64,000 nt of DNA from an uncultured Anaerolineales bacterium (GTDB lineage: Bacteria; Chloroflexota; Anaerolineae; Anaerolineales; RBG-16-64-43), in assembly GCA_964353865.1 (NCBI GenBank), contig CAYGXJ010000040.1, positions 36,329-100,328 on the forward strand. Reading direction: 5' to 3'. The translations under genes were made by a program, and so were the position numbers. This document shows, piece by piece, positions 769-38,695 of this stretch (position 1 is its first letter; the number at the start of each line of letters is the position of its first letter). The notes under the pieces were generated by a model. That model had not been told where the DNA came from and searched no databases. It saw only the letters and a list, made by a program, of their open reading frames with translations.

Positions 769-2622
<1,854 letters not shown>

Positions 2623-4405: not shown

Positions 4406-4521
4406 GGAAAGGAGGTGAGGCTCTCCAGGTTCAGCCTGTTGGAGGGGTTCGACCCGATTGACCCGAGCACCAGGGACCCCCGGTAGGGGTGTCTCACCCT
4501 GAAGGTCAAGGAGATGTCCCA

Positions 4522-6162: not shown

Positions 6163-6190
6163 ACCGGCGGACTTCGGCGCTGTTCGTCGT

Positions 6191-6226
6191 CACCCTCTCC
6201 CTCCCCGCGCGGGGAGGGAGAGGGTG
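6191..6226. repeat. 36-bp perfect palindrome (GA/CT-rich hairpin), possible terminator or REP-like element
   Basis: CACCCTCTCCCTCCCCGC|GCGGGGAGGGAGAGGGTG lies 29 nt after the permease stop. No U-tract follows. The arms resemble the CCCTCTCCC...GGGAGAGGG hairpins at 38726..38746 and 50276..50296. Confidence 0.5.
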
Positions 6227-6270
6227 GTACTATGATGGCCGCTCGGCACTCCCTTGGGTGAGAGTCATGC

Positions 6271-8030: not shown

Positions 8031-8031
8031 C

Positions 8032-9150: not shown

Positions 9151-9283
9151 CCATTCCTTCCGCGAGGGGACGCCGCCGAGCGAGAAGCCCCCCGCGCATG
9201 AATCGTATGAGCCCATTGGCCCGCGTGCCGGGTTCTCGGGCACGCTCACCGCGGCCTCTCCAGCTGGCTGAGGGAGGAATCCG

Positions 9284-9961: not shown

Positions 9962-10011
9962 ACGCGGGTCCCGCCGTGCACCTGTGAATCGAGAGTCGAG
10001 GAGAGGCAAAA

Positions 10012-10227
10012 ATGGGCGAGAGCGTGTATAAGATCGTTGAGTTGGTCGGGACGAGCCCCGAATCGTGGGAGAAAGCGGCCCAGGTGGCCATCAACCAGGC
10101 CGCCAAGACGCTGCGCGACTTGCGCGTCGCCGAAGTCTCCGAGCTCGACCTCCAGCTCGAGGATGGCAAGGTGGTGGCGTACCGCGCCAAGGTGAAGCTG
10201 TCATTCAAGTATCATATTGAAGAGTGA
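10012..10227 (+). CDS. dodecin family flavin-binding protein
   Basis: 71 aa. SVYKIVELVGTSPESWEKAAQVAINQAAKTLRDLRVAEV...AYRAKVKLSFKY is a typical dodecin length and sequence. Confidence 0.8.
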   Translation: MGESVYKIVELVGTSPESWEKAAQVAINQAAKTLRDLRVAEVSELDLQLEDGKVVAYRAKVKLSFKYHIEE

Positions 10228-10328
10228 CGTGGTCGGAGCCGGGCTCGCGGCCCCGCCCGTGGCCAGGGTGCTCTGGCGCGGACGTCAGGCAGCGTGCCCA
10301 AGCTGGGCCACCTGGCGGAGGATGCAAG

Positions 10329-10682
10329 ATGTCGAATTCCCCCAACGATCGAGAGCGCCTGCAACGATTGCGTGAGAAGCAGATCAGCGCGCGCGATCCG
10401 CACGCCAAGCATCGCAGGGTCGAGGCCAAGGTGGCTGCCCGCCGCCGCACCACGGTGAAGCGCTTTTCGATCCGCATGCTCGCCGAGGTTCCGCACAAGT
10501 TTGTGTGGGCCCTTGGCGGCGCGCTGTTTGGCGTGCTCGTGATAATTCTGCTGCCCTACTTTTGGCCGGACCCTCGCGCCTACCTGGTTGCACTGGTGGC
10601 GCTGCTCTTCCTGGCGGCCGTCGGCTTCTTCTTTGGCCGGGCGCTGGATGCGCGCGACGAATTGAACGACCTGACTCGCTAG
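10329..10682 (+). CDS. small membrane protein (hypothetical)
   Basis: Within ORF 10224..10682. ATG 10329 is preceded by GGAGGA. A basic N-terminus is followed by two hydrophobic segments (FVWALGGALFGVLVIILL, LVALVALLFLAAVGFFFG). Confidence 0.5.
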   Translation: MSNSPNDRERLQRLREKQISARDPHAKHRRVEAKVAARRRTTVKRFSIRMLAEVPHKFVWALGGALFGVLVIILLPYFWPDPRAYLVALVALLFLAAVGFFFGRALDARDELNDLTR

Positions 10683-10958
10683 ACCCGCCACGGGGGAGCG
10701 AGTGCCGAGATCGCAGCCCCGCGCAGCCGATCGGGGTGGCCCTCCTGTGGGCTGTAGGTCCGGGCTGCAAGGAAATCGCCTGGGGGATCCGATGTTCTCG
10801 ACCTTGGCGGCGAAACGGAATGGATCGCGGGCACGAGGGGACCATCCGAAATAGGCTTCGCGCGTCCAGGCGGTGCAGGTGCGGAGAGCTTGGCTGGAAA
10901 GTTCTATGGGACCACCGCAGGGCAGTCTGTCCGACATCCTGGAAGTGGAGTAAACACA

Positions 10959-11900
10959 ATGGCCCGTCACAAGATCATCGTCAACCCAACCTCTGGCCGC
11001 GGCGCCGGCGGCGAATCGATCCCGGTCTTGGAAGCCGGTCTGAAGCAGGCGGGGCTCGCTTACGACTTGGTGCGCACCAAGCGCCCCTGGCATGCGGCCG
11101 AACTGGCCCGCGAAGCTGCCGCTGCCGGTTACGAGGTGGTGGTGGCGGTCGGCGGAGACGGCACCGCGAACGAGGTGCTCAACGGACTGATGCTGGCGCG
11201 CGAAACCAACCCGCGGCTGCGGCCGGTGATGGGTTTGATCAGCGTCGGCCGCGGCAACGACTTTGCATTCGGGGCGGGCATTGAGCACGGTGCACAGGCC
11301 GGCCTGGCCGCCCTGGCCGCCGGCCGCCGGGTACCCATGGACGTGGGGCGAGTCTCAGGCGGCCTCTACCCGCAGGGTCGATACTTTGGCAACGGGGTGG
11401 GCATCGGTTTCGACGCCGTGGTCGGCTTCGAGGCGGTGAAACTCAAACGCCTGACGGGCTTCCCTTCCTACATTGTCGCAGCGTTGCGCACTATCTTCCT
11501 CTACTATCGCGCGCCGCGCGTGCGCATTGAAACTGACAGCGGCCCGCTCGAACTCTCGGCGCTCATGGTCTCGATTATGAACGGGCGGCGCATGGGCGGC
11601 GGGTTCATGATGGCGCCCGGCGCCCTCATTGACGACGGTCTGTTCGACCTGTGCATTGCGCGGCAGGTTAGCAAGGCGGGCATCTTCGCCCTCATCCCGC
11701 GCTTCATGAAGGGCACGCAGGGATCGCACCCGGCCATCGTCACGGCGCGCACCAAACGCATCACCGTCACTGCCCTGGAGGGCGTGCTGCCCGCGCACGC
11801 CGACGGCGAGACCCTCTCAACCGATGGCACGCGGCTGGTGGTTGAGATCGTGCCGCGACCTATTGAGATCATTACGATACTGGCTGGAGGTACCGCATGA
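10959..11900 (+). CDS. diacylglycerol kinase-family lipid kinase (YegS/LCB5-like)
   Basis: MARHKIIVNPTSGRGAG...VVVAVGGDGTANEV...GRGNDFA are DAGK catalytic-domain motifs. Start chosen inside ORF 10890..11900. Confidence 0.8.
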   Translation: MARHKIIVNPTSGRGAGGESIPVLEAGLKQAGLAYDLVRTKRPWHAAELAREAAAAGYEVVVAVGGDGTANEVLNGLMLARETNPRLRPVMGLISVGRGNDFAFGAGIEHGAQAGLAALAAGRRVPMDVGRVSGGLYPQGRYFGNGVGIGFDAVVGFEAVKLKRLTGFPSYIVAALRTIFLYYRAPRVRIETDSGPLELSALMVSIMNGRRMGGGFMMAPGALIDDGLFDLCIARQVSKAGIFALIPRFMKGTQGSHPAIVTARTKRITVTALEGVLPAHADGETLSTDGTRLVVEIVPRPIEIITILAGGTA

Positions 11901-25368: not shown

Positions 25369-27246
25369 ATGATCATAACCTCCGGTCCCTGGTTCACCGA
25401 TGAACACGGCCGCACGCTGATCTTGCGAGGTGTCAACCTCGGCGGGAGCAGCAAAGTCCCCTTCACGCCGGATGGCGCCTCTTACATCCGCGATGGATTC
25501 CTCAACCATCGCGCCGTCTCCTTCGTTGGCCGCCCATTTCCCCTGGCCGAGGCGGATGAACACTTCGGCCGCCTCGCGCGCTGGGGCTTCACCTTCCTGC
25601 GCTTCCTCATCACCTGGGAAGCCATCGAACACGGCGGCCCCGACCGTTACGACCAGGCCTACCTCGACTACGTGCGCGCCATCGTTGAGAAAGCCGGCCA
25701 ACACGGGTTGAGCCTCTTTATTGACCCGCACCAGGACGTCTGGTCGCGCTTCTCGGGCGGCGACGGCGCACCCGGCTGGACTCTCGAGGCGGTGGGCTTC
25801 GACCTGGCCAGCCTGCATGAGGCCGGCGCGGCGATGGTCCATCAGATGCATGGCGACCCCTTCCCACGCATGATCTGGCCGACCAACGCGACCAAGCTCG
25901 CCTCAGCGACCATGTTTACGCTCTTCTTCGGCGGCAACGACTTCGCGCCGAAGACGCGCATCGAGGGCGAACCGGCGCAAGAGTACCTGCAGCGCCACTA
26001 TATCGAGGCCGTGCGCCAGGTGGGGCTGCGCTTACGCGACCTGCCCAACGTGGTGGGCTACGACACGCTCAACGAGCCCTCCTGCGGCTGGATCGGCTGG
26101 CGCGACCTGGCCTCGCCAGGCGGCGAGCTGCGCGCCGGGCATATGCCCGCCCCGCTGCAGTCGATGCTGCTTGGCGCGGGACACCCGCAGCGGGTCGAGC
26201 ACTGGGAGCCGACCCTGCTCGGGCCGATGCGGCGCGGCGCAGACCTCATCAACCCGCGCAGGCTGCACGCATGGGCCGAGGGTCGCGAGTGCGTATGGCG
26301 CGCGAACGGCGTGTGGGATCTGGATGCGAACGGCGAGCCACGCCTGCTGCGGCCGGACCACTTCACAGTCGTAGGCGGTCGCCAGGTCGACTTTGCGCGC
26401 GACTACTACAAGCCGTTCGCCAACCGTCTTGCCCGCGAGATCCGCAGTGCGCATCCACAGGCGCTCCTCTTCCTCGAGAGCGATCCGATCTTGCCCAAGC
26501 TGGATTGGGGGGCGGCCGACGCGCCGGGCGTCGTCTATGCGCCGCACTGGTACGACGGCTACGTCCTGTACACCAAATCCTATTCGCCGCACCTGGGCGC
26601 AGATATGTTCACGGGCAAGGTCGTCTTCCTGCGCAGCAAGGTGCTGCGCTCGTTCGAGGCGCAGCTCGGGCGCCTGAGGCGCATCGCACGCGAGAACCTG
26701 GGCGGCGTGCCGGTGCTTATTGGCGAATTCGGCATCCCTTTCGACATGAACCAGAAGCGCTCCTACCGGACGGGGGATTTCCGCGAGCAGCGCGCCGCGC
26801 TCGATCGCACCTTCCGCGCGCTAGAAGCCAACCTGCTTTCGGGGACGCTGTGGAACTACACGGCTGACAACACCAACGCGCGCGGCGACCAATGGAACGA
26901 TGAGGACCTCTCGCTCTTCAGCCGGGACCAGCAACGCGATCCGGACGACCCGGACTCGGGCGGCCGCGCGCTCGAGGCCGCGGTGCGCCCCTACGCGCGC
27001 GCAGTGGCCGGCGAGCCGCTGCGCATGAGCTTCGATTTGCGCACACTCGAGTTCGTGCTCGAATTCCGCCACGACCCGCGCGCCACCGCGCCAACCGAGA
27101 TCTTCCTCCCGCGCCTACACTACCCGTACGGCGCGCGCGTGGAGGTCTCGGATGGAACGTATGAGGTGCGCGAGGCGGAGCAAGTCCTCGTGTACCGCCA
27201 TGGCGAAACGCGTGAGAACCATGCAGTGAGGGTGAACCCAACCTGA
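25369..27246 (+). CDS. glycoside hydrolase family 5 (glucosylceramidase/endoglycoceramidase-like subfamily)
   Basis: LILRGVNLGG, FLRFLITWEAIEH, FIDPHQDVWS, acid/base YDTLNEP and nucleophile VLIGEFGIPFD. Start at MIITSG after GGGAGGA. Confidence 0.75.
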   Translation: MIITSGPWFTDEHGRTLILRGVNLGGSSKVPFTPDGASYIRDGFLNHRAVSFVGRPFPLAEADEHFGRLARWGFTFLRFLITWEAIEHGGPDRYDQAYLDYVRAIVEKAGQHGLSLFIDPHQDVWSRFSGGDGAPGWTLEAVGFDLASLHEAGAAMVHQMHGDPFPRMIWPTNATKLASATMFTLFFGGNDFAPKTRIEGEPAQEYLQRHYIEAVRQVGLRLRDLPNVVGYDTLNEPSCGWIGWRDLASPGGELRAGHMPAPLQSMLLGAGHPQRVEHWEPTLLGPMRRGADLINPRRLHAWAEGRECVWRANGVWDLDANGEPRLLRPDHFTVVGGRQVDFARDYYKPFANRLAREIRSAHPQALLFLESDPILPKLDWGAADAPGVVYAPHWYDGYVLYTKSYSPHLGADMFTGKVVFLRSKVLRSFEAQLGRLRRIARENLGGVPVLIGEFGIPFDMNQKRSYRTGDFREQRAALDRTFRALEANLLSGTLWNYTADNTNARGDQWNDEDLSLFSRDQQRDPDDPDSGGRALEAAVRPYARAVAGEPLRMSFDLRTLEFVLEFRHDPRATAPTEIFLPRLHYPYGARVEVSDGTYEVREAEQVLVYRHGETRENHAVRVNPT

Positions 27247-27311
27247 GGCTCGCGCGCATCGGAACACCGGTTGCCCGCGCTGTTCACCTGTCGCTTGATG
27301 GATGCACGAAT

Positions 27312-27344
27312 GGGAAAAAGAGGGTGGCCGCAATGGCCACCCTC
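27312..27344 (-). terminator. intrinsic terminator for the ABC-2 operon
   Basis: GAGGGTGGCC-GCAAT-GGCCACCCTC (27320..27344) is followed on the minus strand by TTTTTCCC. It lies 40 nt after the permease stop. Confidence 0.65.
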
Positions 27345-27384
27345 ATCCGTTCTCACCATGTAAGCGGATAGTCCCAGATCACCT

Positions 27385-28197
27385 CTACAGCGAGAGCAAC
27401 AACCCCACCAGGTACGGCGCCCAGGCCAAGAGGGCCAACGCCGGGTGGCGGCCGCGCGTCACGTTCTTGCTATCCCATTTGAAGAGAAAAACGCTCATAG
27501 CGAAGGCCAGCAGCCCGCCCGCCGCGAGCACGCCGAGCGAGAGCCACGGGTCGATGCTCGGCGCGCCGTGCATGGCCAGGCCGTCGAACGCGCTCATGGC
27601 ATACGTCGTCGGCAGGATCAGCGCGACCTTTGCCAGCGAAGCCGGGAGCACGCTGGTGGGGAGCATCAGCCCGCCCAGCAGCATCGACGGCAGGAAGAGC
27701 AGTTGCGACCACAACACCGTGATGCGGCTGCTCGAGGAAATCACGCCGATCAGGATGCCGATGCCGGCAAAGGCCAGCGCCATGACTAGGTAGATCAGGA
27801 AGAACGCCACCCAGTTGACCGGTGCCACGGCACCGAAGAACAGCGGTCCGGTGATGGCGATGATGACCGTGACCAGCAGCGCGTGCAGCATGGTGGTCAG
27901 GACCGGGATGACGAGGATCGAGAGCGTGGGCACGCCGTTGATGCGGTAGCTTCGGAAGATGCCCGCCTCGCGCGCGGTGACGTGCGGATCGGGCAGGCCG
28001 AGCAGCGCGCCGCTGAGCACCGCGAAGACCGACATGGCCGGGACCATCACCTGGATGAAACCCGGATTGAGCTGGGCGAAGAGCAGGCCCAGCAGCGCAT
28101 AGAAACCCAGCGGGAACAAATAGTTCATGAGCAGCAGCGTCCGGTTGCGGATGCCGGTGCGGAATTCGAAGGCGAAGTGCTGGGCGAAGGCGTTCAT
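27385..28197 (-). CDS. ABC-2 type transporter permease
   Basis: 270-aa protein with about six TM segments and a 4-nt overlap with the upstream ATPase gene. Confidence 0.75.
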   Translation of the reverse strand: MNAFAQHFAFEFRTGIRNRTLLLMNYLFPLGFYALLGLLFAQLNPGFIQVMVPAMSVFAVLSGALLGLPDPHVTAREAGIFRSYRINGVPTLSILVIPVLTTMLHALLVTVIIAITGPLFFGAVAPVNWVAFFLIYLVMALAFAGIGILIGVISSSSRITVLWSQLLFLPSMLLGGLMLPTSVLPASLAKVALILPTTYAMSAFDGLAMHGAPSIDPWLSLGVLAAGGLLAFAMSVFLFKWDSKNVTRGRHPALALLAWAPYLVGLLLSL

Positions 28198-29111
28198 CGA
28201 GCAGCCCCTTTCGTCGTGATCTCCAGAAAGCGGTCCTCGAGCGATGGGCGTTCGACGCGCAGGTCGATCAGCGTGTCCCCCTGCGCGGCCAGGTGCGAGA
28301 TGAGGGCCGAGATGGTCGGGCCGATATCGCGGCTGAAGTAGATGACGTACTCGCCTTCGGTCGCCGTCTGCGCGACGGCGGGGAAGGAAAGCCCCGCGGC
28401 CATGAGGCTCGAGCCTTCGGTGCGCACTGAGATCTTGGTCAGGCCGGCGCCGGTGGCGGTGATCTCAAGCGGTGTGCCGAGCGCGACCAGCTTGCCGCGC
28501 ATGAGGATCGCCACGCGCGTCGACATCTCGGCCGCTTCGGCCATATCGTGCGTCGCGAGCAGGATCGTTGTGCCGCCGGCCTGCAGCTCGCGCATCAGGT
28601 CGTGCAGCATGGCACGCGAGGCCACGTCCAGCCCGGCGGTCGGTTCATCGAGGAAGAGGACCGGCGGCTTGTGGGCGACGGCCAGCGCGAGCGAGAGCCG
28701 CCGCTGCTGCCCGGCCGAGAGCTGGTGGTACTGTGCCGTGCGCTTTTCGGCCAGCCCGACGCGGTCTATGAGGTCGTCACGTGGCGGCGCTCCATGGTAG
28801 GCGCAGAACAGGCGCAGCGCCTCATCGACGCGGATGCTTTCCGGCAGGCCGGAGGTTTGAAGCTGCACGCCGATGAGCGAGCGCAGTTGGCGCGTCTGGC
28901 GCGCGGGGTCTACGCCCGCGATGCGCAGCGATCCGCCATCCGGGAAGCGCAGCCCCTCCAGGCTTTCGAGGGTGGAGGTCTTGCCGGCGCCGTTGGGGCC
29001 GAGCAGGCCGAAGATCTCGCCGCGCTCGACCTCGAAGCTGATCCCATCGACGGCGACGAACGTGCCGTACGCCTTGCGAAAATCCTTGACTTGGATGACG
29101 GTTTCGTTCAT
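28194..29111 (-). CDS. ABC transporter ATP-binding protein (ABC-2/DrrA-like)
   Basis: Walker A GLLGPNGAGKTS, signature LSAGQQRRLSLA and Walker B VLFLDEPTAGLD. Start at MNETVIQVKDF (29111); the 461-aa ORF extension upstream is repeat or non-coding DNA. Confidence 0.85.
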   Translation of the reverse strand: MNETVIQVKDFRKAYGTFVAVDGISFEVERGEIFGLLGPNGAGKTSTLESLEGLRFPDGGSLRIAGVDPARQTRQLRSLIGVQLQTSGLPESIRVDEALRLFCAYHGAPPRDDLIDRVGLAEKRTAQYHQLSAGQQRRLSLALAVAHKPPVLFLDEPTAGLDVASRAMLHDLMRELQAGGTTILLATHDMAEAAEMSTRVAILMRGKLVALGTPLEITATGAGLTKISVRTEGSSLMAAGLSFPAVAQTATEGEYVIYFSRDIGPTISALISHLAAQGDTLIDLRVERPSLEDRFLEITTKGAAR

Positions 29112-29234
29112 CGTGCGACCTCCAGGCGTGGCGGTGGATTCCGGCGCGTTACCTGCATTGTAGCGTGAGCTCAGCCTTGCCGGCATCCTACAAAAGAGGG
29201 ACGGGTAGACCGGTGGCCGGGTGAAGTCGCTCTC

Positions 29235-29281
29235 GGTCTCTGGGAGCCTGTCCCGCGAAGCGGGAGGGGCGTGGGGGTGCC
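29235..29281. repeat. solo P2 repeat module
   Basis: GGTCTCTGGGAGCCTGTCCCGCGAAGCGGGAGGGGCGTGGGGGTGCC lies in the spacer between the ABC operon start and the island. Confidence 0.7.
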
Positions 29282-29456
29282 CGCTGCGGGCGTTGTGCGC
29301 GGATATTCGGTCCAGTAGGAGCACGGGCAGATTGAGGATTGGAGAGGGGGTGGCCCATGGACGACGGGTGCCGAGGGCGGAAGGCGGTGATGCACGCGGT
29401 AACGTGGATCCATTGCGAGGAGTGAGCGCAGCGCAGATGGAGGTTGCAGTCGTCGT

Positions 29457-29485
29457 TTGACCGCTCGCGGAATATCGGCAACAAT
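29457..29485 (+). promoter_or_regulatory. candidate promoter of the five-gene island operon
   Basis: TTGACC, a 17-nt spacer, then AACAAT, about 45 nt upstream of ATG 29531, which has a strong AAGGAGGG Shine-Dalgarno. Confidence 0.4.
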
Positions 29486-29530
29486 TGAGGCCGGGGGGCG
29501 CGAAACCCCTGGGGGCAAGGAGGGTCGCTG

Positions 29531-30217
29531 ATGCACCGAGTTCTTCCGCTGCTCGCGCTTGCCAGCCTTCTGCTTTCACATTCCTCTCCAGCTGGACCGA
29601 TTAGCGTTGGCAAGACGCGGGTCGAAAACGGCTACCCCGAATCCATCACGTTTGAGGCAGCTGTCGCCAGCACGGCCGGGCTCCTCAGCCGCGTCGAGTT
29701 GCATGTCCGCGTGCGCGGCGATTCCATGACCTCGGTGATCGTCGCGCCGATCGAGCCGGCCGCCTCGCTGCCGACGCGCGCAGAGTGGAAGACGCGCGCG
29801 AACGATTTCCAGGACCTTGTGGCGGATCTTCTCAAGGCGATGGGCTACCATGTGAGTTGGGTAGCGCTGAGGGGCAAGGATGTTGGTGTCGACATCATTG
29901 CCCACACCGACCCGCTGGGCGCGAACCCTCCCCGCATCAAGATCCAGGCGAAGAGAACGGAGGAGGCCGCAAAAGTAGAAGCTGTGCGCGCGTTCATGTC
30001 CCGGTTAGGCGATGACGACGTAGGGATCTTCGTATGTCGAGGAGGATTCACGAAGGATGCTGCAGACGAGGCGCGCGAGCAGGAGAAACGCAAAGTAACC
30101 CTCATCGATGAGGGCAGGCTATTTGACCTCTGGGTTGAGCGCTATGACAAGCTGACGCAAGAGGCTCGCGACTGGATGCCGACTAGGCCGATCTACTTCC
30201 TACCACCAGGCGAGTAG
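29531..30217 (+). CDS. Mrr-cat (PD-(D/E)xK) restriction-endonuclease-domain protein with signal-peptide-like N-terminal extension
   Basis: The C-terminal roughly 135 aa read FQDLVADLLKAMGYHV...GKDVGVDIIAH...RIKIQAKRTEE...GIFVCRGGFTKDAADEA...VTLIDEGRLFDL, which fits the Mrr catalytic-domain pattern. The N-terminal roughly 95 aa (MHRVLPLLALASLLLSHSSPAG...) look like a Sec signal plus an unrelated beta-rich segment. Internal alternative start at 29726. Confidence 0.7.
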   Translation: MHRVLPLLALASLLLSHSSPAGPISVGKTRVENGYPESITFEAAVASTAGLLSRVELHVRVRGDSMTSVIVAPIEPAASLPTRAEWKTRANDFQDLVADLLKAMGYHVSWVALRGKDVGVDIIAHTDPLGANPPRIKIQAKRTEEAAKVEAVRAFMSRLGDDDVGIFVCRGGFTKDAADEAREQEKRKVTLIDEGRLFDLWVERYDKLTQEARDWMPTRPIYFLPPGE

Positions 30218-30219
30218 GC

Positions 30220-30429
30220 ATGCCAACCCATAGAGATGTCCAGAGGATCGTCAAGGCGCGCCATGGCTTCCAACCGAAGCCATGCTGGATCGCTGATGTA
30301 AAGGAAATGTCCGGGCTACCAGTTCGACGTGCATGGAATCGGCAAGGCCGGACTCGCAAGAACCCTTGCCCGGGGACAAAGATCGAGGCCATCCAGCAGG
30401 CGATGAAAGAGCTCGGGATGATCTCCTAG
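30220..30429 (+). CDS. small basic hypothetical protein (69 aa)
   Basis: It starts 2 nt after the Mrr-cat stop and ends 24 nt before the next gene. It is rich in R/K, with the segments KPCWIADVKE and RKNPCPG. No family call. Confidence 0.5.
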   Translation: MPTHRDVQRIVKARHGFQPKPCWIADVKEMSGLPVRRAWNRQGRTRKNPCPGTKIEAIQQAMKELGMIS

Positions 30430-30453
30430 GTCAGCGGGCAGAGAAACGCTGGG

Positions 30454-31677
30454 ATGTCGTCTACCTTCACTTGGCTTGACCACTCCGAGTACGAGCGTCG
30501 CAAGATGCTCGACGTCATCGAACTCTTCCGAGAACGGGACACTCGCGATGAGCTTGGCCTTGGGACGATTCGGGATGCCTTCGCCGACCTGTTCTTTCCC
30601 GGCACGAGCACGATCCAGACCCGGGCACGCTATTTCTTCATCGTTCCTTGGATGTACCTGGAGCTGGAAAGTAAGCGAGTTGCATCTGCCGCAGTAGCTG
30701 ATCGGGTGCGGAAATACGAAATCTCCCTTATTGACGCGCTTCTCGAGTCAGGAGAAACCGATGGAGTTCTTGGCCGGGTCGCTGGGATAAGCCTCCAGCG
30801 GCTGCCCAGCAACATCTATTGGCAAGGCGTTGGGATCCTTGGCATTCGCCTTTTTCCCGGGTCCCAGCCACAATACCACCGCAGCCTGGATCGCTTCTAT
30901 CTCTTGAAGGGGCGGCAGGCTCATGACGACGATGGCGAGCCGGTGGGCAGTGCGCTGGAGGGCAACTGGCACCCGGGCCTCCCGGAGCCGCCAGGAGAGT
31001 TCCCTCGCAAGGCAAGCCTGAAGCTCACGCGAATGGAAGCCCGCTACCTTCGGGAACGGATCACGGCCCGCGCGCCCGATTCCCTCTTCAGGTTCCTGGC
31101 CGAGCGAGGGCGCGAGGTTGAAGAGCTTGACTTCCCCTGGCAACACCCGCAGTCTGCGGAGTTCCCCGCTCGCTGCCTGGAGCAGCTCCGCCATGCCCGC
31201 AACTTCTCCGAAGCCATGCACGGCGCCTCGCTGCTGTACAACTTGATGCTCTCCAATATGGCTGCCAAGGATGAGCTCGTCTCCGAGTACGAGCAACGCC
31301 TGAAGGAGTGGGCCGTCGCCATGCGCTCCAGGCACGTTGAATTCCTTTCTTGGGACCGCGCCCGATTCTGGCAGATCGTCAGCTCGCACGGAGCTCGGGT
31401 AAGCCGAGGCACCCGCCTCTTCGTCGAGAGCTGGCTGGAGCTTGTGTCCGCCGATGAGTCCCCCGGCCGATCGGCGGCGGGGAACAAAGCTCGCAACCTG
31501 GTCCACGAGCGCGAACGCGCCCTAAAACGCAGCCTGGCGCGGCTCGACAACCGCAGGGCACTTGAGCTCTGGAGCGGGGCGGCAGGGACCGCGCAGTTGA
31601 ACTACCGTTGGCGGATCGCCCAGCGGATATTGAATGACATCTATCAGGGAGTGTCACAGGACGGCCGAGGTGCTTGA
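30454..31677 (+). CDS. DUF6361-like protein (function unknown)
   Basis: 407 aa. The N-terminus FTWLDHSEYERRKMLDVIELFRERDTRDELGLGTIRDAFADLFFPGTSTIQTRARYFFIVPW matches my memory of DUF6361. The family assignment is unverified. Confidence 0.7.
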   Translation: MSSTFTWLDHSEYERRKMLDVIELFRERDTRDELGLGTIRDAFADLFFPGTSTIQTRARYFFIVPWMYLELESKRVASAAVADRVRKYEISLIDALLESGETDGVLGRVAGISLQRLPSNIYWQGVGILGIRLFPGSQPQYHRSLDRFYLLKGRQAHDDDGEPVGSALEGNWHPGLPEPPGEFPRKASLKLTRMEARYLRERITARAPDSLFRFLAERGREVEELDFPWQHPQSAEFPARCLEQLRHARNFSEAMHGASLLYNLMLSNMAAKDELVSEYEQRLKEWAVAMRSRHVEFLSWDRARFWQIVSSHGARVSRGTRLFVESWLELVSADESPGRSAAGNKARNLVHERERALKRSLARLDNRRALELWSGAAGTAQLNYRWRIAQRILNDIYQGVSQDGRGA

Positions 31678-33526
31678 GCCAAACGACCGCCGTCACTTGC
31701 TGGACAGCTTGAGACCCCCAGAGGGGTACGTGCTCACGCATGCGCTGGGCACAACCTACTCGCTTGACCTCCTTAGCCTCCTTACCGTGCCGTTGGCATT
31801 CTCCCTCTTCGACTGGGAAGCACAGGACGGGAGCCAGACGAAGGATCCGCTGGCTGTGCTCGAGGCCTTGCGCAGGCATGCCGAGCATATCTTGATCTTC
31901 TGCCAGGCCGGCGCGATCTACGTTCCCGATAACGCGCCGCTACTAATTGCGAGCCTTGAGCCCTCGGTTGTCGAGGTGCGAGCGACCCGCGATGCGGGAG
32001 TCTTCCACCCCAAAATATGGTTCCTGCGCTTCGCCTCTTCCTCCGGACCGATCCTGTACCGGCTCATTTGTGCCAGCCGCAACCTGACATTCGATCGCAG
32101 CTGGGATACCGTCCTGGTGCTGGAGGGGGAGCTCGAGGAGCGGCAGGTCGGGTTCGGGGCGAATCGACCGCTGGCGGACTTCATCCAGGCCTTGCCAGCG
32201 CTGGCGCCGCACGGGGTTCCGGCAACACGTCTTGAGATTGTCCAGAGGATGCAGCGCGAGATCAGGAAGGTGCGCTTCGTTCCTCCCGAAGATTTCGACG
32301 AGGTCACCTTCTGCCCCCTCGGGATCCACGGGCATCGGAGCTGGCCCTTGCCCGAGACGATACGGAAGCTCCTAGTTGTCTCCCCGTTTCTGAGTGTCGA
32401 TTTGCTCCAGCGGCTTGCTGGAAGTGCCCAAGAGGCTGTGCTTGTCTCGAGGTTGGAGGCGCTGCAAGCACTCAGCCGAAAGCAGTTTGGCGGTTTCTCC
32501 CACCTCTACACCCTGGCGGCGGAAGCGGACCCCGAGCCAGAAGCCGAGGTTGCGGCAGAGCCGCTCCCCGAGACGGCGACTGCCGGCCTGCATGCCAAGC
32601 TGTATGTTGCCGATCTCGGATGGGACTCAAAGGTGTGGACCGGGTCGGCCAACGCGACGACGGCTGCCTTTCGGGACAATGTCGAGTTTCTGGTGGAACT
32701 CACGGGCAAGCGCTCGGTTTGCGGTGTGGACAGCCTGCTCGAGCCTGCGTCGGGGAGGATGAGGCTTGCTGATCTACTCGAGAAGTTCGTGCCGGAGAAG
32801 GATGCGCTCCCTGTGGATCCGGTCCAGGTGGCCATGGAGCAGGGTATCGAGCAGATGAAGAGGCGCATTGTCGATGCGCGGATTCGAGCACACGTTGTTC
32901 CAAGCAGAGCCGAGGACGCGTACACAGTCGTCCTCCACGGCAAATCCGGCGCCGACAGGCTTGCCACGGATTCAGAGCTGGATGTCAAGGTCCACTGCTG
33001 GCCTATCATGCAACAAGAGGAGAGCGCGGCCGCGATCGAGCGACTTGGCGGCGAGGTGGCGTCCTTTGCGAGCCTCTCGTTTCCAGGATTGACTTCCTTC
33101 TTTGCCTTCCGCGTGGACATAGCCCGGGCAGGCAAGAAGCTGTCGTCCCGATTCGTGCTGAATCTACCGCTGGTCGGCGAGCCCGAGGACCGTCAAGAGC
33201 GACTCTTGCGTCACCTACTTCAGGACCGCAACCAGGTCCTGCGGCTGCTGCTCCTGATCTTGTCTGATGTCGACGGCGCTGAACTCGGCCAAGCTGAGGT
33301 GAGGCGGCTCTTGGCGGATACCGGGCCGAGTGTGAGATTCCCGTATTCGGGCGCTCTCCTGGAGCCTCTTCTGCGCGCGCTTGCCCGGGACCCCGAGAAG
33401 CTGGATGAGGTTGCGCACCTCGTCGACGATCTGGAACGCACAGCGGAGGGCCAGGCGCTGCTGCCCGAAGGCTTTCACCGCGTTTGGGATCCGATCTGGG
33501 CGACGAGGGGGGCCAAGCGAGTGTGA
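31634..33526 (+). CDS. phospholipase-D-family (two HKD motifs) putative nuclease
   Basis: HKD-1 is GVFHPKIWFLRF...ASRNLTFD (His codon 32006). HKD-2 is GLHAKLYVADLGWDSKVWTGSANAT (His codon 32591). About 300 aa of C-terminal sequence have no recognisable motif. The gene overlaps its upstream neighbour (ATG 31634, or GTG 31670). Confidence 0.8.
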   Translation: MTSIRECHRTAEVLEPNDRRHLLDSLRPPEGYVLTHALGTTYSLDLLSLLTVPLAFSLFDWEAQDGSQTKDPLAVLEALRRHAEHILIFCQAGAIYVPDNAPLLIASLEPSVVEVRATRDAGVFHPKIWFLRFASSSGPILYRLICASRNLTFDRSWDTVLVLEGELEERQVGFGANRPLADFIQALPALAPHGVPATRLEIVQRMQREIRKVRFVPPEDFDEVTFCPLGIHGHRSWPLPETIRKLLVVSPFLSVDLLQRLAGSAQEAVLVSRLEALQALSRKQFGGFSHLYTLAAEADPEPEAEVAAEPLPETATAGLHAKLYVADLGWDSKVWTGSANATTAAFRDNVEFLVELTGKRSVCGVDSLLEPASGRMRLADLLEKFVPEKDALPVDPVQVAMEQGIEQMKRRIVDARIRAHVVPSRAEDAYTVVLHGKSGADRLATDSELDVKVHCWPIMQQEESAAAIERLGGEVASFASLSFPGLTSFFAFRVDIARAGKKLSSRFVLNLPLVGEPEDRQERLLRHLLQDRNQVLRLLLLILSDVDGAELGQAEVRRLLADTGPSVRFPYSGALLEPLLRALARDPEKLDEVAHLVDDLERTAEGQALLPEGFHRVWDPIWATRGAKRV

Positions 33527-36500
33527 ATCGCGTCGCCGAGCGACCCGATGTGGCGAGGATCGAGAGCGGGCTGAAGGATTTTCAGCGTGCAACGGTTGAC
33601 TATGTGTTCCGCCGCCTGTACACCGACCCGCGGCCCACGCGACGGTTCTTGATCGCGGATGAGGTAGGCCTTGGGAAAACCCTCGTGGCTCGGGGCGTAA
33701 TCGCTCGGGCGATCGACCACCTCTGGGATCTCGTGGACCGGATCGATATCGTCTACATCTGCTCGAACGCCGACATCGCCCGCCAGAACATCAACCGCCT
33801 CAACGTGACAGGCCAGGAGGGGTTCGCCCTGGCCTCCCGCATAACGCTCCTCCCCCTCGAGTATCACGAACTCGATCAGAGGAGACTCAACTTCATCTCC
33901 TTCACCCCGGGAACGTCGTTCGAACTCAGGTCCAGCATGGGGATGGGCACAGAACGCGCGCTTCTGTACCGGCTGCTGGAGGCCGGCTGGGGTCTCAAGG
34001 GAAACACTCCCCTGAATGTCCTGCGCGGCAATATGGGCTCGGAGAACTTCCGGTGGCGGGTGAAGGAGTCTCGCGAGTGGCAGATCGATGCCCAGCTGGC
34101 GGAGGCGTTCCTTGGTGCACTTGAGAAGCGGATCGTGGAGCAGCAGTCCCGAGGCGAGCAGGATCTACGGGCTCGGTTGGAGGACCTCTGCAAGGCCTTT
34201 GCTCGCTCAGACAGCCGAGTGACCGAAGAGGCATGGTGGGAGCGGACCGCCTGGGTGGGCGAGGTGCGGTCGCTGCTCGCGCAGACCTGTCTCAGCCAGC
34301 TCCAGCCGGACCTGATCATACTAGACGAGTTCCAACGGTTCAAGAACCTGCTGATGGGCGAGGACGCGGCGAGCCAACTGGCGCATGAACTCTTCAAGTA
34401 TGCTGACGCCCAGACGGCGGCACGTGTTCTCCTCCTCTCAGCCACGCCCTACAAGATGTACACGCTTGCACAAGAAGCAGGGGAAGACCACTATCGCGAT
34501 TTCCTTGAGACGGCTCGCTTTCTCCAAGACGATAAGGAAGCCACGATCCGTCTGGAAGGCTTGTTGGAGTCCTACAGGTCGGCAATCCTCCGAGCAGGCG
34601 AGCCAATCGGCGAGGATGTCGAGGGCGTGCGAGGGCAACTGGAGGATTGCCTACGGGTGGTCATGGCACGCACCGAGCGGCTGGCCTCAACATCGGATCG
34701 CAGCGGGATGCTGACCGAAATTGAGTCAAACCCGGAGCTGGCGCCGGAGGACATTCTCTCCTACCTGGCCCTCGAGGACCTGTCTGGCGACCTCCACGAC
34801 AGGAACTCGCTGGAGTTCTGGAAGTCAGCCTCCTACCTCCTCAACTTCATGGAGGACTACCAACTTAAGCGATCCTTCCGGGATGCCCTCAAGGATCCGG
34901 CGCGTGGAGGGTCCATTGGAGAAAAGCTTGCCTCTTGGCCTCAGCTCCTCCTTCCGTGGCGCTGGAGGGTCGAGAAGTACCGGCCTGTGGCCCCGAGCAA
35001 TCCGCGACTGAGGGCGCTGCAATCTGAGACACTGGATATGGATGCCTGGAAGCTGCTCTGGCTTCCCCCCTCGCTGCCTTACTACAAGCTGGAGGGGGCG
35101 TATGCAGAGCCGCGACTGGCGGGGTTCTCCAAGCGGCTGGTCTTTTCTTCCTGGAAGGTAGTCCCCCGGGTCGTAGCGTCTTTGCTGAGCTACGAAGCCG
35201 AGAGGCGGATGATCACCTCGTACGAGCCGAAAGCCCTGAACACGCCGGAGGAGCGGGAGAAGAGGCGTCCTCTGCTGCGTTTTGCCCGGTCCGAAGGCAG
35301 GCTGACCGGGCTCGCCCTTTTTAGTTTGATCTACCCCTGTGTGGTCTTGGCTCGCGGCTTCGACCCGTTGGGCTATCCAGGCAACTGCACAGGAGAGGAT
35401 CGGCTTCCATCAGTGAAGGAACTGTTGGGGGTCATCCAGCCGCAAATCGCGGAGCTTGTCACGTCCAAATTGTCCGGCTTGGCGACCACCAGGGCCGTGG
35501 ACGAGCGCTGGTATTGGCTCGCGCCAATCCTGTTGGATCTGGAAACGGAAGCGCACCAAGCTAAGGATTGGTGGCAACAGGAGGGCTTGCCAACGGATTG
35601 GGCGTCCCAACAAGAGGATCTGAATGACGATGAGGGCACCTCGGCGTGGGCCGATCATGTCGCGCAGGTTCGGGACCTAGTGCAAGAGTGGCGTCGCGGT
35701 GAACTACAGCTTGGGGCGATTCCCGAAGATCTGGGTGCCCTCATGGCGCAGCTCGCGGTGGCGGCTCCTGGTGTGGTGATGCTGAGGTCGCTCTCCCGCA
35801 TATCCGATGGAAAGGCAGCTCAATCCAGCTTGAGTATCCGAAACGCATCCGCGCGGACAGCCCGGGCCTTCCTGAGTCTGTTCAACCTCCCCGAAGCCAC
35901 TTCCCTGGTGCGTGGCGTGAACGCCGAAGAACCCTTCTGGCGGCGAGTGCTTGAACACTGCGTGTCTGGCGGACTCCAGCCGGTGATGGACGAGTACGTC
36001 CACGGCCTGAAGGAGTCGCTTGGTTTTGTCGGGAGCGTGTCAGAGGCTGCGGCCTCGGAAGTGGCGGACGCCGTTCGATACGCTCTGGGGCTGCGCACAT
36101 CGACGCCGGTGATCGACGACATTCGCGTGGGTCCAAGGAGCCACAGGGTCACAATCCACGAACAGCGGATGAGAAACCGCTTTGCCGTGAGGTTTGGAGA
36201 TGAGAAGACGGAGGGGTACGGGCAGCCCACACGATCCGACCAGCTGCGGGCAGCCTTCAATTCCCCCTTCTGGCCGTTTGTCCTGGCCACGACGTCGGTT
36301 GGGCAAGAAGGGTTGGATTTCCACACCTACTGCCACATCGTTGTCCACTGGAACCTGCCCGCCAATCCTGTGGACCTTGAACAACGCGAAGGCAGAGTCC
36401 ACCGCTACAAAGGGCATGCCATCCGCAAGAATCTAGCCGCGAGGTACGGCCTTCGCAGCGTCTTGGGGTTGATGGATAGGAATCGTGATCCATGGGATGT

Positions 36501-36795
36501 CCTCTTTGAGCTCGGCGTGAAGGACCGAGCCAACGGGACTGATATTGTGCCCTTCTGGGTCTATCCAATAGAGGGCGGGGCTCGGATCGAGCGGCACCTC
36601 ATGATGCTGCCGCTTAGTCGCGAGGTGGAGCGGGCAGAGGAGTTGCGGAGATCCTTGGCGATTTACCGGATGGTGTTCGGCCAGCCGCGCCAGGAAGACT
36701 TGGTGAGCTACCTGCTAAGCCGCGTGCCGGAGGAGAACGTCGAGGCTTTGGGCGAACAGCTAAGGATCAACCTTACGCCCCCTCCGACAAAGTGA
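33484..36795 (+). CDS. SNF2-family helicase-related ATPase
   Basis: Motif I LIADEVGLGKT, II LIILDEFQRFKN, III LLLSATPYKMY, putative IV KRLVFSSWKVV, V TTSVGQEGLDF and VI QREGRVHRYKGH. The gene overlaps the PLD gene (ATG 33484, or GTG 33523 in a GTGA overlap with the stop). Confidence 0.85.
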   Translation: MGSDLGDEGGQASVNRVAERPDVARIESGLKDFQRATVDYVFRRLYTDPRPTRRFLIADEVGLGKTLVARGVIARAIDHLWDLVDRIDIVYICSNADIARQNINRLNVTGQEGFALASRITLLPLEYHELDQRRLNFISFTPGTSFELRSSMGMGTERALLYRLLEAGWGLKGNTPLNVLRGNMGSENFRWRVKESREWQIDAQLAEAFLGALEKRIVEQQSRGEQDLRARLEDLCKAFARSDSRVTEEAWWERTAWVGEVRSLLAQTCLSQLQPDLIILDEFQRFKNLLMGEDAASQLAHELFKYADAQTAARVLLLSATPYKMYTLAQEAGEDHYRDFLETARFLQDDKEATIRLEGLLESYRSAILRAGEPIGEDVEGVRGQLEDCLRVVMARTERLASTSDRSGMLTEIESNPELAPEDILSYLALEDLSGDLHDRNSLEFWKSASYLLNFMEDYQLKRSFRDALKDPARGGSIGEKLASWPQLLLPWRWRVEKYRPVAPSNPRLRALQSETLDMDAWKLLWLPPSLPYYKLEGAYAEPRLAGFSKRLVFSSWKVVPRVVASLLSYEAERRMITSYEPKALNTPEEREKRRPLLRFARSEGRLTGLALFSLIYPCVVLARGFDPLGYPGNCTGEDRLPSVKELLGVIQPQIAELVTSKLSGLATTRAVDERWYWLAPILLDLETEAHQAKDWWQQEGLPTDWASQQEDLNDDEGTSAWADHVAQVRDLVQEWRRGELQLGAIPEDLGALMAQLAVAAPGVVMLRSLSRISDGKAAQSSLSIRNASARTARAFLSLFNLPEATSLVRGVNAEEPFWRRVLEHCVSGGLQPVMDEYVHGLKESLGFVGSVSEAAASEVADAVRYALGLRTSTPVIDDIRVGPRSHRVTIHEQRMRNRFAVRFGDEKTEGYGQPTRSDQLRAAFNSPFWPFVLATTSVGQEGLDFHTYCHIVVHWNLPANPVDLEQREGRVHRYKGHAIRKNLAARYGLRSVLGLMDRNRDPWDVLFELGVKDRANGTDIVPFWVYPIEGGARIERHLMMLPLSREVERAEELRRSLAIYRMVFGQPRQEDLVSYLLSRVPEENVEALGEQLRINLTPPPTK

Positions 36796-36811
36796 AGGGC
36801 ACGCGTGCCCT
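36796..36811. repeat. 16-bp perfect palindrome immediately after the helicase stop
   Basis: AGGGCACGCGTGCCCT shares the GGGCACG/CGTGCCC arms of the P1 palindromes but lacks their central hexamer. No U-tract. Confidence 0.6.
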
Positions 36812-36946
36812 CCCATCGACCTCGCGTGGGATGTGTACTGAGGGCGCCCTACCACGGACATCACAGCCACCTACGCGTACCCACGGCCGCCACTATGCGA
36901 TGTCCCGGGTCTTACCATCGCCGCCTCACCCCCTCGGAGGGGCCTC

Positions 36947-37486
36947 ATGCATACGCCACGCACCCTGCGCCTCAGTCTCTGCCTCCTGTTCGCCGCCATG
37001 CTTGCCTGCAACTTGAAGGGGAACATGCTCTGGAACCTCGCCGGCCCGCAGACACCGGCCGATATCGTCGCAACATACGCGGCGCCGGCCGCGGACGACG
37101 CTGCGGTCGAGGAGTGCCTCGCGCCACCGGAGGCGTACGCGTTCGCCAACGAGAACCTCGACGTCAAGGTCGACGGCCCGAACGCGATCTGCAACGCCAC
37201 ATTTACACTCAAGAACCTCGGGCAGGAGCCACTTTCGGCCGTCGTCCACATCGCCTGGGATAACACGGTCGAGCAGTCGCAGTTCTGGGAAGTCAAGCCT
37301 CTGGGCCGGGGCGTGTCGTGGACCGAGCATGTGAACGAGTCCCACCTGATTCAGAATGCCTACTTGCGCGTGACCCACATGCTCGTGGTTCGCGATGTGC
37401 CTGAGTGCTGGTGGTTGGCCGCGAACGCCGAGCAGCCGCGCAGGGCAACGATTGCTGTCGCCATCGATCCACTCCCATGCCCGTGA
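36947..37486 (+). CDS. lipoprotein, hypothetical (copy A of a duplicated gene)
   Basis: Signal plus lipobox MHTPRTLRLSLCLLFAAMLAC, with GGAGGGG upstream. In my hand alignment, 87 of 122 C-terminal residues are identical to ORF 49733..50203. Confidence 0.6.
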   Translation: MHTPRTLRLSLCLLFAAMLACNLKGNMLWNLAGPQTPADIVATYAAPAADDAAVEECLAPPEAYAFANENLDVKVDGPNAICNATFTLKNLGQEPLSAVVHIAWDNTVEQSQFWEVKPLGRGVSWTEHVNESHLIQNAYLRVTHMLVVRDVPECWWLAANAEQPRRATIAVAIDPLPCP

Positions 37487-37617: not shown

Positions 37618-38064
37618 CTACCCGCCCACCAACTCCGGATGGCTCTTTTTGAGCCAAGCCTCGACTGCCTTCGTCAACGCCTTAGCCTCACTGACGAGTT
37701 CATTGGCCTCGGTGTCGGAAATCCCTCCGCCCCGGTCATAAGTGCCGACATTCCGCTTGGTGCGGCAACTCTCGAGGTAGATAGCCAGGCCGGCGGATTC
37801 CTTCCCCATGACGAGCGGTAGCGCCTGGAAAGTGACCCGGTGGTGGCCCGCCCCATGTGTCTGATATCCGGCACACGCGAGCGGGACCGTGGCCAGCGGC
37901 AGGACCGCTTCATATGCAATCAGGAACCGCCGGTCGGGTGAGAGACCCGCAACCGAGGCATCCGTCAAGTCACGCTTTGCGAGCCTTAGTAGATCTCCGA
38001 TTTCCTTGCCGCTTGTCTTGTGTCGCCTGAGTTGTCCCTCGGCCAGCAAGCACTCTAAGCTCAT
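37618..38064 (-). CDS. HEPN-domain toxin (HEPN/MNT type II/VII TA system)
   Basis: 148 aa. The N-terminus LLAEGQLRRHKTSGKEI and the RTKRNVGTYD motif region (Rx4-6H-like position) are typical of HEPN partners of MNT. It lies downstream of and overlapping the MNT gene. Confidence 0.7.
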   Translation of the reverse strand: MSLECLLAEGQLRRHKTSGKEIGDLLRLAKRDLTDASVAGLSPDRRFLIAYEAVLPLATVPLACAGYQTHGAGHHRVTFQALPLVMGKESAGLAIYLESCRTKRNVGTYDRGGGISDTEANELVSEAKALTKAVEAWLKKSHPELVGG

Positions 38065-38656
38065 CGTCGCCCCCTATGAGATAGATCTTGGGTGCCTCCA
38101 GCGTCGCGTGGAGAAAGTGGTTTCCCTCGCGCGCCTTGCGCCGGAACTCGGCCTTGGTCATGAGAACCGGATTGATTTCTCGCCCCAGGCTCTCCCGAAG
38201 AGGGGCGAGCAGCCCGGCCAGCGCTCTCCCGGTCAGCGCCCCAATGACCAGGATGTCGATGTCGCTCGAGGCCGTGTCGGTGCCCTCGGCAATTGAGCCA
38301 AAGATGAAGGCGACCTCGATCTCGCCAGATGCCTGCTGAAGGCTTTCTCTTAGCGCATCGCCCATTCCGACTGTCTTGAGCAGTAGGGACTTGAGTTCGG
38401 GGAAGATCGGCGCTCTGCGATTGGCTTGGTAGTACTTGCGATTGCCCTCCACAGACGACTGCAAGAGCCCGCTCGCCTCCAGGCGCGCCACCTCAACCTG
38501 AACCGCGCGTACTGGCAGGTCGGCTTTGGTCGCAATCTCACGCAAATAGAAGCGGCGATCCGGGTTTAAGAGGAGCAGCTTGAGCACGGCTAGGCGCGCC
38601 TGCGAGGTGAAGAGTGCTTCGGCCAGCGAGCCGGAATGTATACTTTTTTTAGTCAT
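37970..38656 (-). CDS. wHTH-fused minimal nucleotidyltransferase (MNT antitoxin)
   Basis: The N-terminal ArsR-like wHTH reads RLAVLKLLLLNPDRRFYLREIATKADLPVRAVQVEVARLEASGLL. The NTase motif is AFIFGSIAEGTDTASSDIDILVIG. Start moved to ATG 38656 because the ORF-track start 38695 lies in the -35 box. Confidence 0.8.
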   Translation of the reverse strand: MTKKSIHSGSLAEALFTSQARLAVLKLLLLNPDRRFYLREIATKADLPVRAVQVEVARLEASGLLQSSVEGNRKYYQANRRAPIFPELKSLLLKTVGMGDALRESLQQASGEIEVAFIFGSIAEGTDTASSDIDILVIGALTGRALAGLLAPLRESLGREINPVLMTKAEFRRKAREGNHFLHATLEAPKIYLIGGDDELRVLAGRGTTQATQDKRQGNRRSTKARKA

Positions 38657-38666
38657 ATGTATACAT
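38636..38666. promoter_or_regulatory. two ATGTATAC operator-like sites flanking the MNT start codon
   Basis: ATGTATAC at 38636..38643 and ATGTATACAT at 38657..38666 (a 10-bp perfect palindrome) are spaced 21 nt start to start. They are candidate binding sites for the wHTH of the MNT protein. Confidence 0.45.
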
Positions 38667-38695
38667 AATATATACGTTGCAAAGCGGGTTGTCAA
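38667..38695 (-). promoter_or_regulatory. strong sigma70-type promoter of the MNT/HEPN cassette (near-leaderless)
   Basis: The minus strand reads TTGACA, a 17-nt spacer, then TATATT. The -10 element ends 10 nt before ATG 38656, so the leader is only a few nt. The stretch is strikingly AT-rich for this genome. Confidence 0.6.

Follow-up and report, generated by a model that had tools for sequence, protein, structure and literature searches.

An apparent signal peptide-Mrr nuclease gene beside an Azaca defence system is probably a deletion-made fusion of two truncated genes

A 228-aa open reading frame (ORF) with an ATG start (29531..30217, + strand), which lies in a 64-kb stretch of DNA from an uncultured Anaerolineales bacterium (here, the window), is, by comparison with its relatives, a chimera in which parts of two truncated genes are joined in frame: the beginning of one that encodes a secreted Peptidase_MA_2-family metalloprotease, and the catalytic end of one that encodes an Mrr restriction endonuclease. 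We propose that a deletion made this fusion and that its Mrr part is a disabled remnant, an account to which we assign an overall probability of about 0.8. On this account, an apparent "signal peptide + Mrr nuclease" effector resolves to a deletion scar joining two well-known families, and the chimera marks the left edge of an Azaca-carrying defence island to within a few bases.

Results

The C-terminal part of the ORF was originally predicted to follow the Mrr catalytic pattern, and it does. All three motifs are present (GVDIIAH, IKIQAKR and GGFTKDA), residues 90-200 align with positions 6-114 of the 115-position Pfam Mrr_cat profile (PF04471) at an E-value of 1e-21, and D121 and the Q-x-K pair (Q139-A-K141) are conserved with all homologues. 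Neither a stop nor a frameshift interrupts the domain, and the fusion is in frame. The closest database relatives (P0002-P0004) are 295-aa proteins that combine Mrr_N and Mrr_cat; they align to residues 92-228 of the ORF only, with 82-86% amino acid identity over this part. AlphaFold2 predicts a complete α/β core (helix 93-103; strands 107-111, 122-125 and 135-141; then further helices and strands) with a pLDDT mostly above 90 across residues 101-210, and the best fold match of this part in the PDB is the catalytic domain of MspJI (Foldseek E 3e-6; phmmer E 0.09).

The Mrr_N domain of a canonical Mrr protein is missing, as had also been predicted. Mrr_N (PF14338) has no Pfam match in the 228-aa ORF, and residues 1-158 of the full-length relatives match nowhere in the window by tblastn. 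The ORF therefore carries the catalytic domain of an Mrr type IV endonuclease and lacks the Mrr_N domain; its best match among the PADLOC profiles, PDC-S02 (E 9.5e-37), likewise extends over profile positions 194-327 of 334 only. At sites conserved in at least 90% of 105 sequences, the Mrr part departs from the consensus 8 times; the other 104 average 2.0 departures, and none has more than 7, the count of P0003. This excess of unusual substitutions is small and only hints at relaxed constraint. Separately, we set aside a group of 141-aa Mrr_cat-only database entries as evidence for a natural stand-alone Mrr_cat: their first residue is the conserved internal Met of full-length proteins, 3/5 of them come from contigs shorter than 1 kb, and they may be fragmentary gene calls.

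Residues 1-91 have a different parentage. The original prediction described a signal-like segment followed by an unrelated beta-rich stretch, and both descriptions hold. The N-terminus consists of an n-region with an arginine at position 3, an 11-aa h-region and a plausible cleavage motif (Table 1); the best 11-aa hydrophobic window (VLPLLALASLL) has a mean Kyte-Doolittle value of 2.56, and no 19-aa window reaches membrane-span grade (maximum 1.38). This signal-peptide call is heuristic, based on hydropathy and the -3/-1 pattern. All 8 aligned peptidase relatives also carry a hydrophobic leader, placed just before a GPI(S/T)VG-type motif. The beta-rich stretch that follows is no chance product: AlphaFold2 places strands at residues 24-87 with a pLDDT of about 80, and residues 1-91 have 14 homologues in an exhaustive HMMER search against 1.8 billion representatives, all aligned N-terminus to N-terminus. 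By phmmer these include P0121 (E 6e-24, 58% identity), P0122 (8e-18, 441 aa) and P0125 (1e-7, 475 aa). A word-indexed search with the same residues returned nothing, not even the protein itself. The idea that residues 1-91 are a spurious extension of the ORF was considered and is overturned by the 14 homologues.

The full-length relatives P0122 and P0125 contain a Peptidase_MA_2 domain (PF13485) with an HExxH motif (E 1e-27 and 3e-26), and such proteins, at 441-475 aa, have a Pro-rich, hydrophobic C-terminus. Against the leader and first beta strands of P0122/P0125-type proteins, residues 1-91 show 37-58% identity and keep P23, I24, T29, N33, Y35, P36, F41 and G63. Judged from these alignments, residues 1-91 represent a signal peptide plus about 70 of the approximately 120 residues of the N-terminal beta domain of a Peptidase_MA_2-family protein, a domain cut at about 58% of its length. 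The leader and the GPI(S/T)VG beta domain of the family are thus present, but the HExxH peptidase domain is not: tblastn detects it neither in the ORF nor anywhere in the window.

The two parts meet at a sharply defined joint. When the codons of the ORF are set against the DNA of the two parent families, it falls at …AEWKTRAN|DFQDLVA…. At this point the peptidase family has xN/D-G and the Mrr family PY-D/E-FQ, so that some 3 nt (AC-G) could represent microhomology. Matches to three Mrr lineages by blastn start at 29799-29804; by tblastn, the peptidase-type match covers 29594-29797/29803 and the Mrr-type match 29804-30214. Base composition switches at the same point. The flanking ABC, GH5, amine-oxidase and MFS genes have a third-position GC content (GC3) of 0.84-0.92, and the peptidase piece (29651-29770), at about 0.85, resembles them; for the Mrr part, orf69 and ZacABC the values are lower, at 0.67-0.75. 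At about 29800, overall GC also steps down, from 0.66 to 0.58. On the grounds of GC3 and contiguity only, the peptidase piece is most likely native to this genome.

The joint is real. A Logan contig (L018; run ERR3804374, 2,120 bp) spans the 5' end of the ABC ATPase gene, the whole chimera, orf69 and the 5' end of zacA at 99.76% identity to the window, with 5 SNPs. The two-part architecture is otherwise rare in the extreme: in a set of about 15 billion proteins, the cluster that holds the chimera at 90% identity consists of these two near-identical copies alone, and searches with either part find no other protein that combines both halves. The gene thus has two parentages that meet at a defined position, and the missing half of each parent is absent from the window.

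Table 1. Positions of the chimera, its signals and its neighbours in the window.
Feature	Position	Strand	Basis or description
ABC transporter ATPase, resident flanking gene	28194..29111	-	divergent from the chimera; Pfam ABC_tran E 5e-27; GC3 0.86
Sigma-70-like promoter candidate, TTGACC-17-AACAAT	29457..29485	+	only promoter-like site in 28900-30600
Shine-Dalgarno sequence, AAGGAGGG	29517..29524	+	6 nt before the ATG; read from the sequence
Residues 1-21, Sec-type signal-peptide-like leader (MHRV / LPLLALASLLL / SHSSPA|G)	29531..29593	+	hydropathy, -3/-1 pattern, leaders in relatives
Residues 22-91, first ~70 aa of a ~120-aa N-terminal beta (Ig-like) domain, Peptidase_MA_2 family	29594..29803	+	phmmer, tblastn, GC3
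Fusion joint, …KTRAN|DFQDL…	29801..29804	+	in frame; codon-level comparison, blastn, tblastn
Mrr part, residues 92-228 and stop codon	29804..30217	+	complete Mrr_cat PD-(D/E)xK domain; counterpart of residues 159-295 in a full-length, canonical Mrr (295 aa)
orf69, small ORF, 69 aa	30220..30429	+	between the Mrr remnant and zacA
ZacA (DUF6361), Azaca	30454..31677	+	PADLOC ZacA 1e-136; Pfam DUF6361 1e-76
ZacB (PLD-family nuclease), Azaca	31634..33526	+	PADLOC ZacB 1e-176; PLDc_2 1e-5
ZacC (SF2 helicase/NTPase), Azaca	33484..36795	+	PADLOC ZacC E 0, 1138 bits; Helicase_C

The signals ahead of the chimera bear out the strong ribosome-binding site and plausible promoter that were originally proposed. 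The promoter candidate is the sole promoter-like site in 28900-30600, where 0.3 would be expected by chance, and no terminator-like site follows it; we infer that it belonged to the former peptidase gene. No Shine-Dalgarno-like sequence precedes the internal Met66 at 29726 (TCCGCGTGCGCGGCGATTCC), and the internal start that might have left the upstream part untranslated is rejected on that ground. Upstream, the listed 461-aa ORF of the ABC transporter ATPase, which runs to 29579, is over-extended: its ABC_tran domain begins only at ORF residue 178, and the true start is MNETVIQ at 29111. The adjoining permease (27385-28197) shows 98% amino acid identity with its counterpart in a related Anaerolineales MAG (L010), whose DNA is 93% identical to window positions 27004-28317.

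Downstream of the chimera, the predicted gaps of 2 nt and then 24 nt are present, and the predicted DUF6361-like/PLD/SNF2 triad matches the PADLOC profiles ZacA, ZacB and ZacC (E 1e-136 to 0), which identifies 30454-36795, by homology, as a complete Azaca system. [quoted passage not shown] The small gene between chimera and triad, orf69, has no family match and two matches only among 5.8 billion proteins.

Is the Mrr part a component of Azaca? The original prediction raised a partnership between the nuclease and the triad, a suggestion weakened by the sufficiency of ZacABC in the preprint and by the gene neighbourhoods of relatives. Three other Azaca loci (L015-L017; ZacA 52-55% identical) have neither this Mrr nor orf69. 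A metagenome scan with ZacA found three loci only, too few for an estimate of the frequency of restriction endonuclease-fold genes beside Azaca. Intact close relatives of the Mrr part are instead the last gene after a type I restriction-modification (R-M) system, in the order hsdM-hsdS-hsdR(-ygjP)-mrr, in L001, L007, L019 and L021. The only other lineage with Mrr next to orf69 and ZacA is L007, in which a full-length mrr is followed after 2 nt by orf69 (56% identical to that of the window) and after a further 24 nt by a zacA cut at 105 aa. Because this adjacency persists at about 55% identity, a functional link of some kind is possible. Nuclease-like genes also occur beside zacA elsewhere: a divergent 391-aa Mrr_cat protein adjoins it in L016, and a 179-aa ORF resembling a PD-(D/E)xK nuclease lies 44 nt upstream of it in L015. 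Overall, Mrr is probably not a part of Azaca, though the four loci examined are too few to separate association from the clustering of defence genes in islands. The adjacent ZacA, ZacB and ZacC genes that define the system are all downstream of the chimera, and the chimera itself is not a conserved component in L015-L017.

Discussion

Our data suggest a two-step history for the left edge of this island. We propose that Mrr once formed the left end of a defence island that had been gained by horizontal transfer and also carried orf69 and a complete Azaca system, and that this composite island, (hsd…)-mrr-orf69-zacABC, first lay downstream of a gene for a secreted Peptidase_MA_2 metalloprotease. 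A single deletion or illegitimate recombination event would then have brought peptidase codon ~91 up against mrr codon ~158, with the start of the peptidase gene, its promoter and its ribosome-binding site serving as the 5' donor. The event would have removed the body of the peptidase, the Mrr_N DNA-recognition domain and whatever lay between the two genes. To judge from the relatives, the type I R-M genes hsdM/S/R and ygjP probably stood in the lost interval. Because no pre-deletion allele was found, we infer this order of events rather than observe it.

The original prediction had already offered, as one of its readings, a chimera that had captured a 5' end together with its promoter and Shine-Dalgarno sequence, and the substance of that reading, two parentages in one gene, stands. 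Its mechanism, an island landing in a secreted-protein gene, fits less well than deletion or illegitimate recombination. In its plain form, such an insertion would have placed the island inside the peptidase gene and fused the outermost island gene to the peptidase 5' end, with no later deletion; it would account for the in-frame 5' end, Shine-Dalgarno sequence and promoter of a secreted-protein gene upstream, and for the GC3 switch at the joint. Against it, the Mrr gene is without its own first 158 codons, and the 3' two-thirds of the peptidase gene are absent from the right island edge and from the rest of the 64 kb, in which tblastn finds no trace of peptidase residues 90-441 or Mrr residues 1-158. 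The absence of both missing gene parts from the window points to deletion rather than plain insertion. The hsd genes that stand upstream of Mrr in relatives are also absent here (the window holds no remnant of hsdM/S/R, ygjP or Mrr_N), and neither integrase nor tRNA genes were found at the island. The sole pair of repeats near both edges (29694/38846) is 17 nt long with 88% identity, which is chance level. We therefore consider plain insertion unlikely.

Separate searches with the two parts, as first suggested, recovered homologues of each, but not the syntenic empty site that had been hoped for. With the neighbouring ABC-2 permease as anchor, a search of genome contigs gave three loci, none with an empty site or a pre-deletion allele: L010 ends inside the ATPase gene, and the two distant loci have no upstream synteny. 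The loci of two peptidase relatives (L013, L014) show no synteny with the window either.

What would the chimera do? Mrr-N is the presumed DNA-binding domain of Mrr (PMC3874153), and because this DNA-sensing domain is gone, the product is most likely dead as a restriction enzyme. Translated from its strong Shine-Dalgarno sequence, the protein would be routed by its leader into the Sec pathway, and half a beta domain ahead of the nuclease could not be expected to fold. At the same time, an active nuclease domain is possible, given that Mrr_cat is intact, that D121, Q139 and K141 are kept and that the modeled fold is confident. The main effect of the event, and the one plausible consequence, may be that the peptidase promoter and Shine-Dalgarno sequence now read into orf69-zacABC. 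We regard it as improbable, on balance, that the fusion is anything but inert, whether through a captured promoter and Shine-Dalgarno sequence driving orf69-zacABC or through a leader that exports or tethers an active Mrr_cat. Were it so, the first case would represent the regulatory rewiring of a defence system by deletion, and the second the de novo origin of an extracytoplasmic DNase from a restriction enzyme.

Two readings would give the nuclease domain a role. The first, which we judge to be quite improbable, is a cytoplasmic stand-alone Mrr_cat nuclease, made from Met66 (29726) or from poorly exported protein and acting alone or recruited by orf69 or Azaca. The completeness of the catalytic domain, the Mrr-orf69-ZacA adjacency and spacing shared with L007, and the restriction endonuclease-fold genes that flank zacA in L015 and L016 are all compatible with such a protein. 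It would, however, need a start codon that no Shine-Dalgarno-like sequence precedes, or else escape from a signal-like leader that makes a cytoplasmic protein less likely when translation begins at the annotated start; it would act without the presumed DNA-binding domain; its seeming precedents, the 141-aa entries, may be truncated gene calls; and other Azaca loci do without this Mrr.

The second reading, that of a membrane-anchored or exported extra effector, was the other proposal of the original prediction, and it is not supported. We consider it very unlikely that the gene has been neofunctionalised into an exported or membrane-tethered Mrr_cat nuclease that acts as an additional effector or as a DNase outside the cell, even though it combines a strong Shine-Dalgarno sequence and a signal-like leader with an intact, confidently folded catalytic domain that retains its catalytic residues. 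No second lineage with this architecture is seen among 15 billion proteins; the beta domain is cut in mid-fold, the DNA-recognition domain is missing, and the closest intact homologues, the 295-aa Mrr_N+Mrr_cat proteins, have no signal-like leader. E. coli Mrr is described as nucleoid-associated (PMC3973329), and in the preprint's assays ZacA, ZacB and ZacC alone were enough for T4 DNA cleavage (10.1101/2025.07.10.664194). Finally, the window is apparently a MAG contig, closely related to a TPA_asm Anaerolineales MAG, but the chance that the joint is an assembly chimera present in no cell is negligible, since the separately produced contig L018 crosses it with 5 SNPs' difference and its two sides have no more than about 3 nt in common, where an artefact would be expected to need longer shared sequence.

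The deletion-made fusion that we favor is thus an example of defence-island erosion in which Mrr was lost, the hsd genes that probably preceded it are absent, and Azaca was kept. L007 illustrates the complementary erosion, with Mrr full-length and zacA cut. If the captured promoter drives Azaca, the locus would in addition be a small example of regulatory capture. A practical consequence is that gene callers and domain scans will label such remnants as intact "restriction endonuclease" genes.

Both parent families, the Azaca system, and the process itself (deletion fusion and defence-island erosion) are already known. Like canonical Mrr proteins (the EcoK Mrr type; P0002-P0004), the chimera has a C-terminal 137 aa with the Mrr_cat fold and D…QxK residues, in a defence-island setting; where these proteins have Mrr_N and a linker (158 aa), it has a foreign signal peptide and a partial beta domain. 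Mrr relatives adjoin type I R-M genes, as mrr adjoins hsdR in E. coli K-12, whereas the window has no hsd genes. Among solved structures, the catalytic part is matched best by MspJI (PDB 4F0P/4F0Q), a modification-dependent restriction endonuclease with a C-terminal Mrr_cat domain; MspJI, however, reads modified bases with an N-terminal SRA-like domain, and the window protein lacks DNA-reading domains of any kind. PADLOC PDC-S02, a single-gene Mrr_cat defence candidate, is matched by the ORF at its catalytic C-terminus, while its first ~190 profile positions have no counterpart, so the ORF is not a full-length member. On the other side of the joint, secreted Peptidase_MA_2 proteins with an N-terminal Ig-like domain (P0122, P0125) align with residues 1-91 at the leader and first strands; their peptidase domain, HExxH motif and Pro-rich or hydrophobic C-terminal tail are missing from the window. 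Azaca, finally, is represented by three full-length genes directly downstream, to which the chimera is spaced tightly enough for co-transcription; as described in the preprint the system comprises three proteins and includes neither the Mrr remnant nor orf69, both of which are also missing from L015-L017.

Composition of the island and a probable counterpart

Between the Mrr gene and zacA lies a small open reading frame, orf69, whose product is very rare: a search of 5.8 billion proteins returned two matches only, and no family in Pfam, NCBIfam or PADLOC matched it. Its closely packed setting, with spacings of 2 nt and 24 nt on its two sides, is the same in the window and at the comparison locus L007. 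At 2064-11222, L007 retains hsdM-hsdS-hsdR-ygjP-full-length mrr-orf69, while its zacA stops at 105 aa and gives way to unrelated genes, among them GmrSD_N and integrases. It appears to complement the window as a remnant of one shared composite island, inferred to have had the form (hsd…)-mrr-orf69-zacABC.

Features in and around the island and at comparison loci
Feature	Location	Strand	Description
orf69	window 30220-30429	+	69-aa ORF between Mrr gene and zacA
orf69 counterpart	L007 10671-10880		56% identical to window orf69
Lipoprotein-like ORF (MHTPRTLRLSLCLLFAAMLAC…)	window 36947-37486	+	GC3 0.83, as in flanking genes
Putative toxin-antitoxin pair	window 37618-38656	-	HEPN-like, 148 aa; MntA-like wHTH-nucleotidyltransferase, 228 aa
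Mrr_cat gene	L016 1351-2526	-	divergent, 391 aa; adjoins zacA
ORF with PDF…EVK pattern	L015 2-541	+	179 aa; 44 nt upstream of zacA

As listed, zacA and zacB overlap by 44 nt (31634-31677), and zacB and zacC by 43 nt (33484-33526), the latter conditional on a TTG start for zacC. Because the alignment of ZacC to its PADLOC profile begins at ORF residue 22, the true zacC start may lie further downstream than this TTG.

With the 91-aa N-terminus of the peptidase–Mrr fusion as query, a word-indexed protein search returned zero matches, missing even the identical database entry, and an exhaustive HMMER search recovered 14 homologues; negatives from the word-indexed search are thus unreliable for queries this short. 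In two full-length Peptidase_MA_2 relatives, P0122 and P0125, a conserved PCAG precedes a C-terminal end made up of a linker rich in Pro and Thr and a hydrophobic stretch, a pattern that may represent a cell-surface sorting signal.

Flanks of the island

To the left, a contig from a related Anaerolineales MAG (L010) is 93% identical to window 27004-28317, covering a permease and part of an ATPase. The match ends at 27004, with none found beyond, so the GH5 gene next to the permease does not appear to be common to the two. To the right, the lipoprotein-like ORF, whose GC3 resembles that of the flanking genes and which had no match in family searches, suggests that the Azaca island ends within 36796-36946. 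Beyond it, the putative HEPN-like/MntA-like pair, whose HEPN-like member likewise matched no family, looks foreign by its GC3 of ~0.70; an AT-rich patch lies just upstream of the pair, at ~38640-38680.

Comparison with other Azaca loci

Genes of the restriction-endonuclease fold also stand beside zacA in other Azaca loci, L015 and L016. Across the four loci seen, this could reflect either clustering within defence islands or a recurrent association.
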